From the NCBI GenBank assembly GCA_020832465.1, contig JAFIER010000230.1:1-39789 (forward strand): 39,789 bases of DNA. Direction: 5' to 3'. The notes below the pieces were generated by a model, which did not search any database, was not told the DNA's origin, and worked only from the letters and a program-made list of their open reading frames with translations. The first letter of the stretch is position 1. Each line of letters starts with the position of its first letter. This stretch comes from Bernardetiaceae bacterium. Lineage in GTDB: Bacteria; Bacteroidota; Bacteroidia; Cytophagales; Bernardetiaceae. The position numbers and the translations under genes were made by a program. Positions 8,867-39,396 of this stretch are shown piece after piece.

Positions 8867-10084
8867 ACTGAAGTTACGCAGAAAGACTTCTTATAAATAT
8901 ATTTAAATCTATTTATGTATTTTATGCGGCTAATGCTTCGCCTATGGGTGTAGCTACTTGCAGACGCATATCGGAAACCTCGCGCCAAGCATTTTTTAGC
9001 GCATTTATGTATATTTTACGTTTGAGTGCATAATGATTATGACCTAATCGCTTAGACAAACACTCCCAGTCAAATGTAGCGTAAAGTACTGCAAAACAAT
9101 GATTTATCTGTGTTCTTATACTATGAGCAGGTGATTTACCATAGTTAAAGTTGGTTTTAATACTGCGATGATGTTCCTCTACTTTCCACCGTTTTTGATA
9201 GATTGTAGTCATTGCCTCGTAAGAAAGGGATAGTTCGTTACTCACAAGATAGATAATGCCCTGACTTGAGTCCTTGTTTGTAAAGACTTGTTGGCAAAGA
9301 CGTAGCGGAAAAGCTACCCCCTTTACATACACATCATAGACACTTCCCTCTTCTAACGGTAACGAATCTACCCTTTCATATCTTCCAGCTTTTTTGTCCT
9401 CTAAACTTAAAGCAACCCCATGATTGTCGTTAAGAGGCAGAACAAACTTTAAATTTAAATCATTCAAATGCAGCATGTTAGCCTTCCCATTATACCAACT
9501 ATCAGCAAGTACAAAGTCAATGGCAAGTTGATTGCTTACGCTTTGCGATACAATACGTCTAAATTTGTCATTTTTTGTTTCGCTACTTTTTCGCTTCTGC
9601 TTACCTGTTTTTTTATCCTTAATAATCTGGTCTTTGATAACAAAATCAAAAGATACAGGAATGCTATAATCAGACACATAATAAAGTGCGCTAACCTGAT
9701 TAATGCCCTTAAGACAACGTCTTTTACTGTGATCAAAGTGCCAAGCTATTAAACCATTGACCTTTGAATGGGCTTTTTCTTGAATATGATCATCAATAAT
9801 CAGTAATTTTAAATCCGTAGTCTGTGCACTTAGCCGGCGTACCGTAGGCTTAACCAGCTGCCATAAGTCTTTACCTGTGTAATCACGGGCAGATAAAAAA
9901 CGTGTGCACTTATCATGTGATATTTCATTATCGGTAAGAGCCGATAAGTTCGTTGCAGTCGCCTGATTAAAAGCAACTTGCAAAAATTGCGAATAAATAG
10001 CCAACATTTTTTTGTCCATAATCACAAATTTACGTAAATTGCACCTATATAGCAAAAAAAAAATGCGTAGTGCGTAACTTCAGT
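8867..10084 (-). mobile_element. IS4-family insertion sequence (1218 bp), apparently intact
   Basis: Perfect 14-bp terminal inverted repeats ACTGAAGTTACGCA at 8867-8880 and 10071-10084 (reverse complement). Flanked by 5-bp direct repeat TATTT (8862-8866 and 10085-10089). Encloses one transposase ORF. Confidence 0.7.
8922..10055 (-). CDS. DDE transposase, IS4 family, 377 aa
   Basis: DDE-type layout with candidate catalytic Asp residues (LLIIDDH; VLADSWY). C-terminal YREK signature YQKRWKVEEHHRSIKT typical of the IS4 family. Confidence 0.7.
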   Translation of the reverse strand: MLYRCNLRKFVIMDKKMLAIYSQFLQVAFNQATATNLSALTDNEISHDKCTRFLSARDYTGKDLWQLVKPTVRRLSAQTTDLKLLIIDDHIQEKAHSKVNGLIAWHFDHSKRRCLKGINQVSALYYVSDYSIPVSFDFVIKDQIIKDKKTGKQKRKSSETKNDKFRRIVSQSVSNQLAIDFVLADSWYNGKANMLHLNDLNLKFVLPLNDNHGVALSLEDKKAGRYERVDSLPLEEGSVYDVYVKGVAFPLRLCQQVFTNKDSSQGIIYLVSNELSLSYEAMTTIYQKRWKVEEHHRSIKTNFNYGKSPAHSIRTQINHCFAVLYATFDWECLSKRLGHNHYALKRKIYINALKNAWREVSDMRLQVATPIGEALAA

Positions 10085-34143: not shown

Positions 34144-35319
34144 TTATTTTGTATCGATAAGTCCTCTTCCACTTTTCTTAATTTCTCCTGTGCTAAGTAG
34201 TTGTTCGGACATTTTATTAAGTACGCCATTAATAAATTCTCGGCTTTTGGGTGTGCTTAGGCTTTTAGCCAAATCTATATATTCATTGATAGTTACTTTG
34301 ATAGGAATACTTGGAAAATATACCATTTCTGTAACAGCCATGAGTAGAATAATTTTATCTATAAAAGCTACCCTTGATATATCCCAATTTACAAGCGAAT
34401 CTGCAATAATAGCAGAATATCTCAGTCTATTGGCTATAGTATTTGTAAAAAGTTCGTCGAAAAATATTCTATCTTCGTCCCAGTTTCGCGAGAGTTCAAA
34501 AATTTCTACGGGTTGTGGTTTTTCGAGGTCGAGGGCTTTGATTGTTTTGAGGGCAAGGGTTCTCAAAATGCTACGATTTTCTTGCCAGTTTAGGTCATGC
34601 TCTTCGAAATAGTCTTGTACAAACTCATTTCTAAACAAAAAGTCCCTTACAAGTTCTACGAGGAACTCTTGTTCCTCTTCAGGAGTATCTTCTGTAGGCT
34701 TTGTGATATATTTTTGATAAAACTCTTCTTGTTCGAGTTTTCGGAATGCACGCCTTACGAAATCTTTATCCCAATCAGAAACGAGTTTATCGAGAGTAGG
34801 GTTTTCGCTCAGTTTTTTAACGAGTTTGTTTTCTACAAACTTGAGTTCTTTTTTGAACGTAACACTTTCTAAAAGTTGTTTTTTATGGCGTTTTTCGTAT
34901 AGACTATGCTCGTGAAAATCAGCCATTTCTCTTATAAGCCTTAGTATTTGCAAGTATCTATCATGTAGCTCATCTGCTTCTTCGAGCATATATTTTCTAT
35001 AATTATCCTTATCTTTTTGGCATAGATTGCGATAATATATGATAGCTTCTTTTGCAATAGTAAGGTCTTTGGGTTTGGCTTCTGCAATATTTTCACCTTG
35101 TTGTTGCGCCTCGTTGAGGTAATTGAGTTTGAATACCGTTTGTGCGGCTTTCTCACCAGCGATTAGCTCTTCGGCGGGTATGGGTGTCATCGCATTGAGG
35201 TCGGGTTGATAGGCTTCTGCAATATACTCTAAGGCTAATTGATAATTAGCTTCTAAGGCTTGCTCATAAGCATATACAGCTTTTAAGGTCTTGAGTCGTA
35301 GGATTCTGCGATTTAGCAT
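34144..35319 (-). CDS. nusB: transcription antitermination factor NusB (long Bacteroidetes-type form), 391 aa
   Basis: N-terminus MLNRRILRLKTLKAVYAY and C-terminal NusB core INEYIDLAKSLSTPKSREFINGVLNKMSEQL...IKKSGRGLID. Confidence 0.65.
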   Translation of the reverse strand: MLNRRILRLKTLKAVYAYEQALEANYQLALEYIAEAYQPDLNAMTPIPAEELIAGEKAAQTVFKLNYLNEAQQQGENIAEAKPKDLTIAKEAIIYYRNLCQKDKDNYRKYMLEEADELHDRYLQILRLIREMADFHEHSLYEKRHKKQLLESVTFKKELKFVENKLVKKLSENPTLDKLVSDWDKDFVRRAFRKLEQEEFYQKYITKPTEDTPEEEQEFLVELVRDFLFRNEFVQDYFEEHDLNWQENRSILRTLALKTIKALDLEKPQPVEIFELSRNWDEDRIFFDELFTNTIANRLRYSAIIADSLVNWDISRVAFIDKIILLMAVTEMVYFPSIPIKVTINEYIDLAKSLSTPKSREFINGVLNKMSEQLLSTGEIKKSGRGLIDTK

Positions 35320-35529
35320 AAGCGCAATGGTATAGAACGTTTTTTTCTTGTCAAATTTGTAAAGAACTGCAAAACTACATTTTTTTTTTGAATCGTAAAA
35401 ATATAGATTGCGATTTTTTGTGTTTTATATCTAAAAAACTCTGACAAAGCCTGAGCGTATTCCTTAGTATTTCAATATGAAGAAATACTTATATACTTTG
35501 TTTTTGTACGTTTACAACCACTAAATGCA

Positions 35530-35730
35530 CTAATTACTGTCTTGACAAAACTTATCATAAGCGTCTGTTTTCATTATATCAATTTTATAATTCTCACTAT
35601 CTGTTTTTATAATCATTACGCTATCAAAACCAAGTTTATCTAATTTTTCAATCGTCGCCAGCTCGCCTTCTGAGAGCTGTAGAACTCTCCGTAAAAGCCA
35701 ATCAGAAAGTGCTTTATTGGGGTTTGTCAT
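35530..35730 (-). CDS. small hypothetical protein, 66 aa, third gene of the DUF3883 operon
   Basis: ORF starts 7 bp after the upstream ORF. No motif. Confidence 0.35.
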   Translation of the reverse strand: MTNPNKALSDWLLRRVLQLSEGELATIEKLDKLGFDSVMIIKTDSENYKIDIMKTDAYDKFCQDSN

Positions 35731-35736
35731 TAATGC

Positions 35737-36006
35737 CTACCCATTTTCGATATAATCAAAAATAAAATCGCTTAACTGTTCAAATTCTTCATCATGTTTC
35801 AGTATTATTCTTGAAGAAAGTTTACTTACCCAAGCTTGAATTTCTGCCTTTGAGCTAAGATTGGATAAAAACTTAAAATTTGGATTTTCTATCTCAAAGT
35901 TTCCTAAATAATTTAAAATATCGCCTTTGAAAGTGTCTGCATAACTTTCTATATCTCGGTCTAAATACTCTTCTAAATACGATATTTTTTCAGCCAAGCT
36001 TAACAT
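35737..36006 (-). CDS. small acidic hypothetical protein, 89 aa
   Basis: Overlaps the upstream DUF3883 gene by 7 bp (translational coupling). No motif. Confidence 0.4.
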   Translation of the reverse strand: MLSLAEKISYLEEYLDRDIESYADTFKGDILNYLGNFEIENPNFKFLSNLSSKAEIQAWVSKLSSRIILKHDEEFEQLSDFIFDYIENG

Positions 36007-36782
36007 ATATCCGAAATTAAATGATACTCTTTTTTTTGTTTTGGTTTAATAATTTTCTCGATAAACTTCAAATTTTTAATAGGATTCTCAATTAGCAAAA
36101 AAGTTGGCAAGTCATTTAGATTTAGAACCACAGAAACGACATAATTTTGCTTATATTTAGAAGCCATTTTAAACTCTTTTTCAGTTAATCTGAACTTGCC
36201 TTTTTTCTCACGAATGCCTTTGACTTCCGCCAAATAGGTGCTATCATTTACATTGATTTGAAAATCATACCCATCTCCAAACAATCTGGCATCTTCTAAA
36301 GTGCCATTTTTAAATATCTCGAGAGAGTCAAAATTATTCATAAAATACAATTCAGCTTCTAATCCTGTTTTTTGTAATTTTTTAAATCTTGATTTTACAA
36401 TAGGCGTTACATCAGCAGAAATACTTTTTATCTTATAATTTTTTCTCAAATAGAGTTTTACAATATTAGCATAGCTTTTTGCCGACTCTTTTCCAAAAAG
36501 ATTATCTATTAAATGCTTTCTATGAATATAGGCATCTCCCTTCTGCCACCAACCTTTTCTTCCGTTATTTGGAAAAAAAGGATCGAATAAATCCATTCTA
36601 TTCTTGACCACACTACCCGTTTTGACAATTCCAATTTCAACAAAATAGTTAAAAAAGTCAGTTTTTGTAGTAAAGCCAAATTCTTGAATAAATTCAATAT
36701 CAAACTTAGATAATCCATAACCAAGCAAATTCAAAATTTCATAGTTTTGATGTTTGCTGCTTTCTTGTTTCATAGAGTACAA
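36000..36782 (-). CDS. DUF3883-like (restriction-endonuclease-fold) domain protein, 260 aa
   Basis: C-terminal half GLEAELYFMNNF...GDGYDFQINVNDSTYLAEVKGI...FRLTEKEFKMASKYKQNYVVSVVLNL matches the DUF3883 pattern (G.eaE / GyDf.i / EVKg / lt.nE..A / Y.v.vV.n). Confidence 0.6.
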   Translation of the reverse strand: MYSMKQESSKHQNYEILNLLGYGLSKFDIEFIQEFGFTTKTDFFNYFVEIGIVKTGSVVKNRMDLFDPFFPNNGRKGWWQKGDAYIHRKHLIDNLFGKESAKSYANIVKLYLRKNYKIKSISADVTPIVKSRFKKLQKTGLEAELYFMNNFDSLEIFKNGTLEDARLFGDGYDFQINVNDSTYLAEVKGIREKKGKFRLTEKEFKMASKYKQNYVVSVVLNLNDLPTFLLIENPIKNLKFIEKIIKPKQKKEYHLISDIC

Positions 36783-36918
36783 TTAAGTGTGGATTTTTTA
36801 CTTCTGATTCACTTACAGACTAAGCAAATATACATACAAAAATCAAAAATGCAAAGCAATGACAAAAAAAACTCTGACAAAATTTTAAAATCTTGTCAGA
36901 GTTTTGAGTGAATAGTTT

Positions 36919-39396
36919 TTAACTTTTGCTTGGTGCATTGCCAAGGGCTGAGGTTTGAATAGCAGACTCGAGGGCTGTGCCTTTGAGCATATTGGCAAAT
37001 ACATCGGCGACGCTTTTGCCACCTAAGATAGAGAGCGGTGCCATGCTTTCAGCCATTTTAGCCGCTAAGGCACGGTCGCTGAAGTTTTGAAGGGCAGCTA
37101 CTAAATCCGGAGATATAGCCTCTGCTTTGCTCACTACTGCCTGCACTTCACCTTTGAGCTCTTCTAAGCGCAATTGCATCTGTTGCTCTGCAATAGCTAT
37201 ATCGATATCACTAACCGCTTTACGGCTCTCAAGGCGAGCGCTATTGATTTGAATCTGTAAATCCGCTTCTTTTTGTTCGCCCTCCAATTCTTTTTGGCGA
37301 CTTTCAATCGTCGAAGTAATGCGTGTCAGACTTAACTCAAGCTCTTTTTTCAACATCTCAATTTGCAAATCACGCTCCTCTTGCTTAGTTTTGGCACGCT
37401 CCTCAGCGATTTTTCTATCAATATCTTCGCTCTCTTTGATAAAAGAAAACTCCTGTCGCTTTGCTTGTAATGCTAATTTACGCCTTACTTCATTGTGCTG
37501 CGCTTCAGAAAGTATCGTGGAAATATCGTGATTCATAATATCTACACCGATGACCTCCACATCGTACACAAACATATTATTCTCTTCAAAAAAACGACCT
37601 TTTCTTTTACCATCTTCTGCCGACTGCTCGCCGAGTATGATATTGCGAATAATCGCAATGGCATCGCCATAAAAATCCGCTACATTATATTTTTTGCTCG
37701 AGTTGCGCAACACAGAACGCAGGTGGTCTGTCAAAAACTTGACGTAATTCTCCACATTAAACCACTTTTCGGGCTCTTTGATAAAATCTACCCGATAAGA
37801 TAAACGAACATCTATAGGGCAAAAATCCGCCGTCTCGATAGATACAATATCCGAAATTTGATTGTGCAAAGAACGCAAATATACGGTTTGAAGTACGTTT
37901 ACATCAGATTTCGGTGTGCCCGTAGAGAGGTCGACGACCCCCAAAATCTCATCGTACTCAAGGTTATACGTCTGCGGTCCGACAATCACTTTGCGTTCAC
38001 CTGTTTTGTTTACGACCAGCACCGCATAGCCCGTCCATACCTCAACCGTAACTGCCCCTTCATATTTTGTATCGAGAGTAACAGTGCGCGGTTTTGTAAA
38101 ATTATTATCCCTTACAAAGTCATCACCACCAATGCCCTCGGCTACATTTTGCGACCTTGAGGGCGAAGCTATTTTTTTGGTACGTACAACCTCCTTATCT
38201 TCTATAAAAAGGTCATCTTTGCCCTCCTCCAAAGCCGCGCGGCGCAACTGCCGATTGAAAGCCAATACTTCTTCGTTGCCAGGATACCATAACTTGGCTT
38301 GCTTTTCGGTCAGAATACGGCGCACAATGACCGCCTCTCGAGGGTCAGGTAAAAACATACAAGGACCTTTTTGCAATGCAATTTGCCCTGTGTTACGATT
38401 TAGAAAATAACGACCTTCGCCTTTGGGAATCGCTACGGCGTAATAAATCTCTTGCTTTCCATAGCGAATCAGTGCATGCTCAGGGCGTGGAAAATAAATT
38501 CGCTGCTCTTTGCCCGTTATAAAAAGCTCATCACCAATGTTGTATGCTTTATCGCCTTCTTGGTAAGCCGTAATTACTTTTACATAAATACCGCTAATTT
38601 CATTGAGCTCAATCGCTTTAAACTTGCGAAAACCATCTTTGACTACAAAAGTCTCCGTAGGCTCAGGAAAAACAACCGCCGGCCCCTCGATAAATCTTTT
38701 GTTGCCATTCTCATCTAACAAAATGCAATACTCCAACCGCTCGAGCGTAACGGCATCGCGCACATAATTGCCATTTTTATCGGGCACGACCTCCATACCT
38801 GTCGGAGGAATATAAAACGAAATATGAGTGCCTTTGATAATAAGCTGCTGACCCGTAGTAAAAGTAGGACTATCGCTTTCGCCGACAAGACTTGTATCTT
38901 TACCCCCTTCACTCGCCACATTAGACTGCTTCTTGACTACGGCATTTTCCCAGTTTTTGCGTGCCTGCTCCTCGTCATAAATCCGCACCACCAAATATTG
39001 ATTAGAGCGCAACTGATGACCCGGAATAATGCGTACCATCTGACCAGGCCAAAGCGCAAAAAAGGTCGGACCTGGTAGATTCACTTTCCGTCCAATATCG
39101 AGCTGTGAAATGCTATTAGATGTAGCTTCTTTCGGTTGCTTGGCATCATGGGCAGGATTTTTCAATACAATGTACCAGCCCTCGGGAGCTGTAGCAAAGG
39201 TTTGTATAGACTCTTCTAAAGAGCAAATACAAAACTGCTTTTTGTGGGAATCAAAATATACGGGTTTGTCCGTATTTGCCAAACTTGTTTTGTAAGGACC
39301 TACATAAGTGTTGATATGTCCTTTCGTTTGGTCAGAAATAAAAGCAAATTCGTTGGGGGCGAGTACTAAATCTCGCTCGCGGCTTGAGTCTGACAT
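36919..39396 (-). CDS. major vault protein (MVP) homologue, 825 aa
   Basis: N-terminal repeat LVLAPNEFAFISDQTKGHINTYVGPYKTSL parallels the first eukaryotic MVP repeat [29 protein letters not shown]. Several further ~55-aa beta-rich repeats. Shoulder-like segment IETADFCPIDVRLSYRVDF (cf. [21 protein letters not shown]). Long C-terminal cap-helix-like coiled coil (EERAKTKQEERDLQIEMLKKELE...). Confidence 0.7.
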   Translation of the reverse strand: MSDSSRERDLVLAPNEFAFISDQTKGHINTYVGPYKTSLANTDKPVYFDSHKKQFCICSLEESIQTFATAPEGWYIVLKNPAHDAKQPKEATSNSISQLDIGRKVNLPGPTFFALWPGQMVRIIPGHQLRSNQYLVVRIYDEEQARKNWENAVVKKQSNVASEGGKDTSLVGESDSPTFTTGQQLIIKGTHISFYIPPTGMEVVPDKNGNYVRDAVTLERLEYCILLDENGNKRFIEGPAVVFPEPTETFVVKDGFRKFKAIELNEISGIYVKVITAYQEGDKAYNIGDELFITGKEQRIYFPRPEHALIRYGKQEIYYAVAIPKGEGRYFLNRNTGQIALQKGPCMFLPDPREAVIVRRILTEKQAKLWYPGNEEVLAFNRQLRRAALEEGKDDLFIEDKEVVRTKKIASPSRSQNVAEGIGGDDFVRDNNFTKPRTVTLDTKYEGAVTVEVWTGYAVLVVNKTGERKVIVGPQTYNLEYDEILGVVDLSTGTPKSDVNVLQTVYLRSLHNQISDIVSIETADFCPIDVRLSYRVDFIKEPEKWFNVENYVKFLTDHLRSVLRNSSKKYNVADFYGDAIAIIRNIILGEQSAEDGKRKGRFFEENNMFVYDVEVIGVDIMNHDISTILSEAQHNEVRRKLALQAKRQEFSFIKESEDIDRKIAEERAKTKQEERDLQIEMLKKELELSLTRITSTIESRQKELEGEQKEADLQIQINSARLESRKAVSDIDIAIAEQQMQLRLEELKGEVQAVVSKAEAISPDLVAALQNFSDRALAAKMAESMAPLSILGGKSVADVFANMLKGTALESAIQTSALGNAPSKS

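Follow-up and report, generated by a model that had tools for sequence, protein, structure and literature searches.

We analysed a 39.8-kb contig of a Bernardetiaceae metagenome-assembled genome (the window, by which we mean the whole stretch of DNA), and within it three closely spaced open reading frames (ORF1, ORF2 and ORF3) at positions 35530-36782 of the minus strand, which a first-pass annotation had described as a three-gene operon of the toxin-immunity or abortive-infection type. The three frames are present, but they make up a two-gene nuclease module lying in the wreck of a restriction-modification (R-M) system, not a three-gene toxin operon. ORF1 (36000-36773, minus strand) encodes 257 amino acids (aa) from an ATG at 36773, the start indicated by the family alignment and by the NCBI gene call, rather than the 260 aa previously counted from a TTG at 36782. 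The start of ORF2 (35737-36006, minus strand; 89 aa) overlaps the ORF1 stop by 7 nt within the sequence ATGTTAA, as had been stated, while the gap between ORF2 and ORF3 (35530-35730, minus strand; 66 aa) amounts to 6 nt (TAG followed by GCATTA) instead of 7 bp, so that ORF3 lies in the frame of ORF2. Comparisons were made across a survey of 84 ORF1-related loci (from 80 species-representative genomes and others), in which the fullest locus, L012, served as the reference for the C5 methyltransferase gene (C5-MTase, M) and for the 362-codon frame of the restriction endonuclease (REase) gene (R).

The PF13020 profile (NOV_C, formerly DUF3883) matched ORF1 over aa 143-230 (profile positions 1-90 of 91; E = 2e-16; 60.2 bits against a gathering threshold of 22.1 bits), which bears out the earlier call of a DUF3883 domain together with its motifs GDGYDFQ, AEVKG and TEKEF. 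In 84/84 homologues the catalytic residues E139, E141, D167, D170, E183 and K185 do not vary, save for one E183D exchange, and the more than 1,900 ORF1 homologues span 252-257 aa, aligning from the ATG at 36773. ORF1 is basic (isoelectric point (pI) 9.4), and in its AlphaFold2 model (predicted local distance difference test (pLDDT) 68) a flexible linker joins a helical N-terminal domain (aa 11-113) to an alpha/beta core; Foldseek returned weak PD-(D/E)xK matches only, a PD-(D/E)xK homing endonuclease being among the structural neighbours. DUF3883 has been placed in the PD-(D/E)xK superfamily (PMC3424549), and it serves as catalytic domain in modification-dependent REases that have been characterised, some of which adjoin C5-MTase and Type II nuclease genes (PMC6765204). 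Among the PADLOC models, only those of TmtA matched ORF1, at their C-terminal ~100 positions (E 7e-10 to 1e-8). No modified-base reader domain (PUA, DUF3427, SRA or similar) was found fused to the ORF1 nuclease, and searches of PDB sequences retrieved no relatives of ORF1, ORF2 or R. By its domain, ORF1 can be assigned as a genuine PF13020/DUF3883 PD-(D/E)xK nuclease.

An ORF2-type partner with an ATGTTAA-type overlap follows ORF1 in 61/84 loci (48 with ORF2 alone, 5 in which a Zn-ribbon ORF is also present, and 8 with divergent copies recognised by eye), and the overlap is maintained across phyla. Other small proteins take this place elsewhere: a 61-63-aa Zn-ribbon ORF (CxxC...CxxC) is the partner in 15/84 loci, and a third, unrelated 85-aa ORF (MLINGYKISKNILVRKKEIK...) is found in 2/84 loci (L018:1113-1370, and L068 from 4 nt before the ORF1 stop), where it sits in the position of ORF2 and keeps an ATG-TAA overlap. 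Six of the 84 loci have no partner ORF downstream, and ORF1 is full-length there with every catalytic residue. Exhaustive HMMER searching with ORF2 retrieved 85 cluster representatives, nearly all of them stand-alone proteins of 82-92 aa; queried with ORF2 alone, a word-index homology search gave just 2 proteins. Among relatives, sequence identity was 36-60% for ORF2 compared to 64-80% for ORF1. The structure model of ORF2 is a five-helix bundle (pLDDT 91; predicted template modelling score 0.80), in which neither sequence nor fold resembled known antitoxin or immunity families; a colicin-immunity-like fold was considered and found no support in the fold comparison. The first-pass description of two acidic small proteins of 89 and 66 aa was accurate (pI 4.3 for ORF2 and 4.7 for ORF3), and of the two ORFs, ORF2 is conserved, in 61/84 loci and 85 cluster representatives; ORF3 is not conserved as a gene and, having been described as free of motifs, matches an REase family. 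Collectively, these comparisons identify ORF2 as a real, conserved and translationally coupled partner of ORF1, and ORF1-ORF2 (the cassette) as a conserved two-gene core. ORF2 would bind ORF1 stoichiometrically and modulate its activity, most likely by restraining or directing it, and the Zn-ribbon or 85-aa protein probably fills the same role in other loci.

ORF3 matched the PADLOC REase_II model PDLC03479 at positions 313-375 of 376 (E = 1.2e-24), and a tblastn search with L012 R aligned residues 287-353 of 362 in the window (76%). The pseudogene stump (35530-35736, minus strand), which consists of ORF3 and the two codons before its ATG and was delimited by the PDLC03479 match and by continuity at KALMTNPNKALSDWLL, corresponds to the last ~68 codons (~residues 295-362) of the 362-codon L012 R frame, the first ~290 codons being deleted. 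Full-length relatives of ORF3 contain ...AKVCQDNSKALMTNPNKALSDWLL..., and in the window the 'AL' codons persist behind the ORF2 stop, just ahead of the ORF3 ATG, with R homology reaching the ORF2 stop; because these codons remain, the ORF3 ATG is an internal Met of the R family. The L012 R frame is itself matched by PDLC03479 (E = 1e-186) and, at residues 219-334, by PF20731. ORF3 and its full-length relatives all fall in PDLC03479, the C-terminal half of which is the PF20731 B3-like domain, and the full-length members are paired with a C5-MTase. Beginning at ~residue 297 of L012 R, ORF3 keeps ~40 of the ~116 residues of the B3-like domain plus the tail, and it has neither the N-arm nor the nuclease domain (domain anatomy according to PMC4267654). 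Searched against Pfam on its own, ORF3 gave no match, and of a B3-like pseudobarrel complete with both arms, N- and C-terminal (PF20731, ~131 positions), it has only a part.

Remnants of R were found in 22 other loci, where they begin at codons varying from 143 to 310, mostly flush with the ORF2 stop; they lie in any frame, carry stops in L071 and L080 and have no ATG in L010, and 47/84 ORF1 loci contain no R sequence. R-tail proteins chosen independently of ORF1 (P0055, P0015 and P0091) also adjoin the cassette or its wreck. The longest of the best 120 R-tail matches reached at most 276 aa, compared to the 376 positions of the family model, and such stumps are recurrently annotated as "hypothetical proteins" of 86-276 aa in public databases. 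Public gene calls P0026 (L010) and P0019 (L011) present ORF2 as fused to the R tail, the in-frame stop being taken as Q or W under alternative genetic codes, and these "fusion proteins" are database artefacts. Stop read-through or an ORF2-ORF3 fusion was also considered and set aside: the two are in frame here and in L010 and L011, but just 4/14 shortened loci share the frame, which is close to chance. By homology, ORF3 is identified as the 3' stump of an NgoFVII-type (NgoFVII_C, B3-like) Type II REase gene and not as a partner gene, and it is presumably non-functional; with ORF3 a remnant, the proposed three-gene operon is reduced to a unit of two genes.

The origin of this stump is illustrated by L012, in which the order is C5-MTase, DUF3883 gene, ORF2, an ~85-nt hairpin repeat and R. 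Both outer genes are clipped: M covers positions 7-370 of 407 of the PADLOC MTase_II model PDLC03272 and ends in ...LYMQAS*, and R covers positions 31-374 of 376 of PDLC03479 and has no start codon. In the cassette-free locus L013, M runs on to ...LYMQAGNSVTTTLIERIANQIIKIL* (motif X), and the M-R slot is taken by an unrelated 105-aa ORF without a family match (L013:5178-5495), both M and R being frameshifted. M was present in 30 of the 84 loci, and in 30/30 of these the M remnant ends no more than 33 nt from the ORF1 ATG, M and R being clipped at the junctions. The M endpoints fall at codons 58, 97, 175, 189, 206, 266/270, 295, 358, 368, 376 and 387, and tiny extra M stubs were recognised by eye in Campylobacterota loci; throughout the cassette-bearing loci, M has lost motif X along with the final ~37 positions of the model. 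A tblastn search of the whole window with the L012 C5-MTase found nothing, M being gone here. These comparisons show a conserved M-ORF1-ORF2-R synteny and a series of its decay, and the cassette itself can decay too, as in L097.

The junctions offer a partial account of this decay. The left junction mostly reads (T)TTAAATTTGTTGCTTAAnnnATG, containing TAAATTTG, which matches the -7 consensus TAnnTTTG; promoters of Bacteroidota follow the consensus TTTG / TAnnTTTG, with TAnnTTTG as the -7 element. Microhomology to the junction motif occurs at M breakpoints ('FKFI' at codon 97, 'DFKF' at 270, 'ENVKNLV' at 206 and 'RKLT' at 358), and separate ORF1 clades repeat identical M breakpoints. On the other side, the ~85-nt non-coding hairpin repeat (CCCCGATTGCAGTGGAAATCCTTTTTTG...CAAAAAAGATTGnAACG...AGCGGGAAATAGCTCC) stands directly 3' of ORF2 in the fuller loci (L033:2487-2604, L030:8037-8124 and 9276-9355, L012:2435-2513, and others); the window lacks it. 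In L030 copies of it stand on either side of R, and the sister locus L044 keeps the repeat and has lost R; the repeat may be a recombination substrate resembling repetitive extragenic palindromes or miniature inverted-repeat transposable elements. Deletion through the microhomology and through the hairpin repeat flanking R can explain much of the breakpoint pattern. Single-step internal-only M deletions were not seen among the M-bearing loci, and L017 has an internal M deletion alongside a flush one.

Two further observations concern the surroundings of the cassette. A second R subfamily, ~31% identical to the L012 type and falling in the same PADLOC model, occurs at L034:8010-9239 and L035:7999-9231, where it follows a cassette of ORF1 and the Zn-ribbon ORF; its start is apparently intact (...GDMIPYLDSKF...), and the upstream M is cut at codon 175 or 368. 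A gene for Vsr (very-short-patch repair endonuclease) adjoins the cassette in L001/L020 (346-765), L017 and L088, which fits a neighbourhood related to 5-methylcytosine.

In the window, the module is contained in a 1,417-nt island (35449-36865) between exact 16-nt direct repeats TTTGTCAGAGTTTTTT, with copy 1 (36866-36881, minus strand) at the upstream boundary and copy 2 (35433-35448, minus strand) at the downstream boundary. Copy 1 is made up of the 3' arm and T-tract of the intrinsic terminator hairpin (36868-36905, minus strand; a 17-pair stem followed by a T-run) of the gene for a bacterial homologue of the eukaryotic major vault protein (MVP), and these would be the duplicated target. Apart from the hairpin's own other arm, the 39.8-kb window holds no third copy of TTTGTCAGAGTTTTTT, and with 300 shuffles of the flanks as the null, 0/300 reached 16 nt (maximum 14). 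The island has a GC content of 29.7%, below that of the window (38.3%), the MVP gene (43.9%) and the nusB gene (36.6%). The 92-nt leader (36774-36865, minus strand) carries a promoter-like site of Bacteroidota type read from the sequence, composed of TTTG (36852-36855), 19 nt and TATATTTG (36825-36832), ~50 nt before the ORF1 ATG; 36855-36827 was likewise marked as promoter-like, so the island may be transcribable beyond the MVP terminator. The 81-nt trailer (35449-35529, minus strand) contains a hairpin with an 8-bp stem. Neither leader nor trailer showed homology to M/R flanks or to anything else in the surveyed loci, and Rfam returned terminator-hairpin noise only for the block, with no non-coding RNA.

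Longer bracketing repeats were found in L019 (35 nt) and L085 (27 nt), both round a minimal 1.24-1.26-kb ORF1-ORF2 unit, and in L072 (19 nt exact, ~41 nt with one mismatch); in L014, where the local sequence is itself repetitive, the flanking repeat was disregarded. R-M genes of Types I-IV are known to insert in this way, without a recombinase gene and with long target duplications of variable length (PMC2853133). The repeats suggest that the island is an insertion with a 16-nt target duplication. The distribution of the family is wide, with 315 species genomes matched by ORF1, in at least 7 phyla and more than 1,900 clusters; relatives with 64-80% ORF1 identity occur in Flavobacteriia, Cytophagia, Sphingobacteriia, Bacteroidales, Campylobacterota, Acinetobacter/Moraxellaceae and Thioploca, and further in Patescibacteria, Victivallales, Zixibacteria and Treponemataceae. 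No close ORF1 relative was found on phages or plasmids, where the searches gave no phage match and two plasmid relatives at 28-30% identity. Composition and distribution indicate that the island was acquired horizontally.

Taken together, we consider it probable that the locus holds a mobile, autonomous restriction-type nuclease (ORF1) with a small modulator (ORF2), horizontally acquired along with a dead R stump. The 1,417-nt island would have inserted into the terminator 3' of the MVP-homologue gene, duplicating 16 nt of the target, and would be driven by its own promoter. ORF1 would act as a DUF3883 PD-(D/E)xK DNA endonuclease, with its helical N-domain presumed to recognise DNA, and ORF2 would be produced via translational coupling at ATGTTAA. 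Elsewhere the ORF1-ORF2 core lies between a C5-MTase and an NgoFVII-type R, these neighbours being clipped or progressively deleted, and in this genome the methyltransferase has vanished and R is reduced to its tail. ORF1 itself is probably an active stand-alone restriction-type DNase, with a defence or a selfish role. Several observations weigh against this reading. The N-domain of ORF1 yielded no recognisable homologue or fold match in Pfam, PDB sequence or structure searches, and for ORF2 the fold search returned nothing beyond generic AAA+ lid bundles. As the 16-nt repeat is rich in T and belongs to a terminator, convergence is possible, and exact-protein look-ups with the NusB-like and MVP proteins found no empty-site allele (one metagenome scan gave a single MVP relative, 40% identical and from a high-GC organism, L096). 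Moreover, two R subfamilies only 31% identical (the second in L034/L035) occupy the same slot, and ORF1-ORF2 may once have been integral to the R-M system.

The last point leads to the view that ORF1 and ORF2 belong to a four-gene R-M system (M, DUF3883 protein, small protein and B3-type R) as integral subunits and are, in this genome, non-functional leftovers of a dead system that have yet to degrade. One gene order shared by R subfamilies as distant as the L012 and L034/L035 types would be explained by it, and R-proteins of the NgoAVII/CglI type with a B3 domain do need a separately encoded second subunit (PMC4267653, PMC4267654). Clipping of M and R in all cases, and the abundance of loci that have neither, weaken this view: every cassette-bearing locus has M without motif X and the last ~37 positions and R without its first ~30 positions and start, and ORF1 is intact, 64-80% identical and invariant in its catalytic residues in 47 or more loci without M or R. 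In the cassette-free L013, moreover, the C-terminus of M is canonical and another ORF, of 105 aa, fills the slot; we regard integral subunits as improbable. A type II toxin-antitoxin (TA)-like addiction pair, in which ORF1 is a lethal DNase and ORF2 its indispensable proteic antitoxin, would explain why the pair outlasts the R-M genes, and it agrees with the coupled basic and acidic products (pI 9.4 and 4.3), with a small partner in 78/84 loci, with the faster evolution of ORF2 (36-60% against 64-80% identity) and with the loci, roughly half of the total, in which the pair persists though M and R are absent. The six full-length, catalytically complete ORF1 copies without a downstream partner weaken the notion of an indispensable antitoxin, even if an antidote encoded elsewhere is possible; three unrelated partner families are interchangeable, the fold of ORF2 is unlike known antitoxins and immunity proteins, there is no TA match, and the cassette decays in L097. 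We consider such an addiction pair possible, although unlikely. The earlier label of toxin plus immunity or abortive infection found no TA, abortive-infection or PADLOC match beyond the nuclease domain of TmtA. In its full three-gene form, with a DUF3883 toxin and both ORF2 and ORF3 as functional acidic immunity proteins or modulators, it drew on the tight packing, the overlap, the acidity of the small ORFs, an unbroken 66-codon ORF3 frame with an ATG and the presence of ORF3-like tails after ORF2 in further loci. However, ORF3 amounts to the last ~18% of an REase family of 376 aa, with homology continuing 5' of its ATG, it holds ~40/~116 B3-like residues, and 47/84 loci lack R sequence altogether; the remnants elsewhere start anywhere from codon 143 to 310, only 4 of ~14 in the ORF2 frame, with no ATG in L010 and stops in L071/L080, which leaves this operon very improbable.

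A different kind of alternative assigns the wreckage to the cassette itself. ORF1 could be a homing- or transposition-type nuclease that moves the cassette into R-M operons and disrupts M and R, the nested deletions being its footprints. The ends of the cassette do not vary, the breakpoints at the 3' end of M and the 5' end of R (the latter from 1 to 310) do and are always flush with the ORF1 start or the ORF2 stop, breakpoints recur across ORF1 clades, the family has spread across phyla, and a homing endonuclease is among the structural neighbours of ORF1. Against this, microhomology at the left junction (TTTAAATTT / AAAnTT) and the hairpin repeat after ORF2 explain the hotspots without activity of the element, terminal inverted repeats are absent, the target duplications vary in length as is typical of R-M-style illegitimate insertion, and no close phage or plasmid relative is known from the searches; we think it quite improbable. 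The broader proposition is that the cassette is a selfish nuclease element not described before, which specifically colonises and thereby destroys one family of Type II R-M operons (C5-MTase and B3-type REase), clips motif X of M and the start of R in every copy, makes the flush, nested deletions with its own nuclease and spreads between phyla with R-M debris such as the ORF3 stump. This is likewise improbable, and under it the deletions may arise by homing-like or transposition-like activity or by methyl-directed attack on the resident system. The mobile, autonomous nuclease with its small modulator remains our preferred reading.

The genes on either side of the island were also characterised. 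The MVP homologue (36919-39396, minus strand; 825 aa) matches PF11978 MVP_shoulder (E = 2e-26) and PF17795 Vault_3 (E = 8e-8) and weakly Band_7, and its gene is followed by the very strong terminator hairpin. The block had been placed upstream of this gene; on the coding strand it lies downstream of it, with the 17-bp-stem terminator in between. A functional tie to the MVP homologue was considered and rejected, as no other ORF1 locus has an MVP gene and a strong terminator separates the two. Since the island is inserted into the MVP terminator and other ORF1 loci are without MVP, it appears to be unrelated to MVP, and its proximity to be incidental. On the other side, a NusB-family protein (34144-35319, minus strand; 391 aa) has its NusB domain at aa 253-371, preceded by a ~250-aa N-terminal extension without a family match.

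These results correct the annotation of the block, in which one of three "genes" is a pseudogene stump, and ORF1-ORF2 is an uncharacterised DUF3883 restriction-type nuclease module, delivered by an R-M-style insertion. The family to which it belongs is widespread and uncharacterised, combining a compact DUF3883 nuclease with interchangeable small partners, and the pair, being tractable, is a candidate for a new minimal module of restriction or defence. The Type II R-M family beside it is seen, in these data, almost only as wreckage round the cassette, with breakpoints that are unusually regular and cassette-flush; if it is true that the cassette causes this wreckage, it would represent a novel type of conflict among selfish elements related to defence.

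Among known systems, a Type II R-M system comprises an intact cognate methyltransferase and an intact REase, and the window has neither. The modification-dependent (Type IV) REases of DUF3883 type (YenY4I and McaZI-like DUF3427-DUF3883 fusions; Lutz et al. 2019, PMC6765204) have the PF13020 C-terminal catalytic domain in common with ORF1, and they are stand-alone or defence-island genes, some next to C5-MTase and Type II nuclease genes, as with the ORF1 family. In contrast to them, ORF1 has no PUA, DUF3427 or SRA domain, its N-terminal ~130 residues are helical, and it is much smaller (257 aa) and has a coupled small partner. Tiamat TmtA (PADLOC) likewise contains a DUF3883 nuclease domain, but its models have 1,063-1,782 positions with large N-terminal regions of ATPase type, and ORF1 aligns only to the terminal nuclease segment. 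Colicin DNase-immunity (Im) and type II TA pairs have a basic nuclease followed by a coupled, small, acidic, helical and faster-evolving protein, as do ORF1 and ORF2, although ORF2 is unlike the Im and antitoxin families, intact ORF1 copies exist without a partner, and ORF1 has no secretion or delivery domain. With respect to mobility, the island differs from the insertions of Furuta, Abe & Kobayashi 2010 (PMC2853133) in that its 16-nt repeat is shorter than their 30-bp criterion and its insert is a nuclease pair with R-M debris rather than a complete R-M system, but it resembles them in its direct repeat of host sequence and its freedom from integrase and transposase genes, as well as in its low GC content and patchy distribution.

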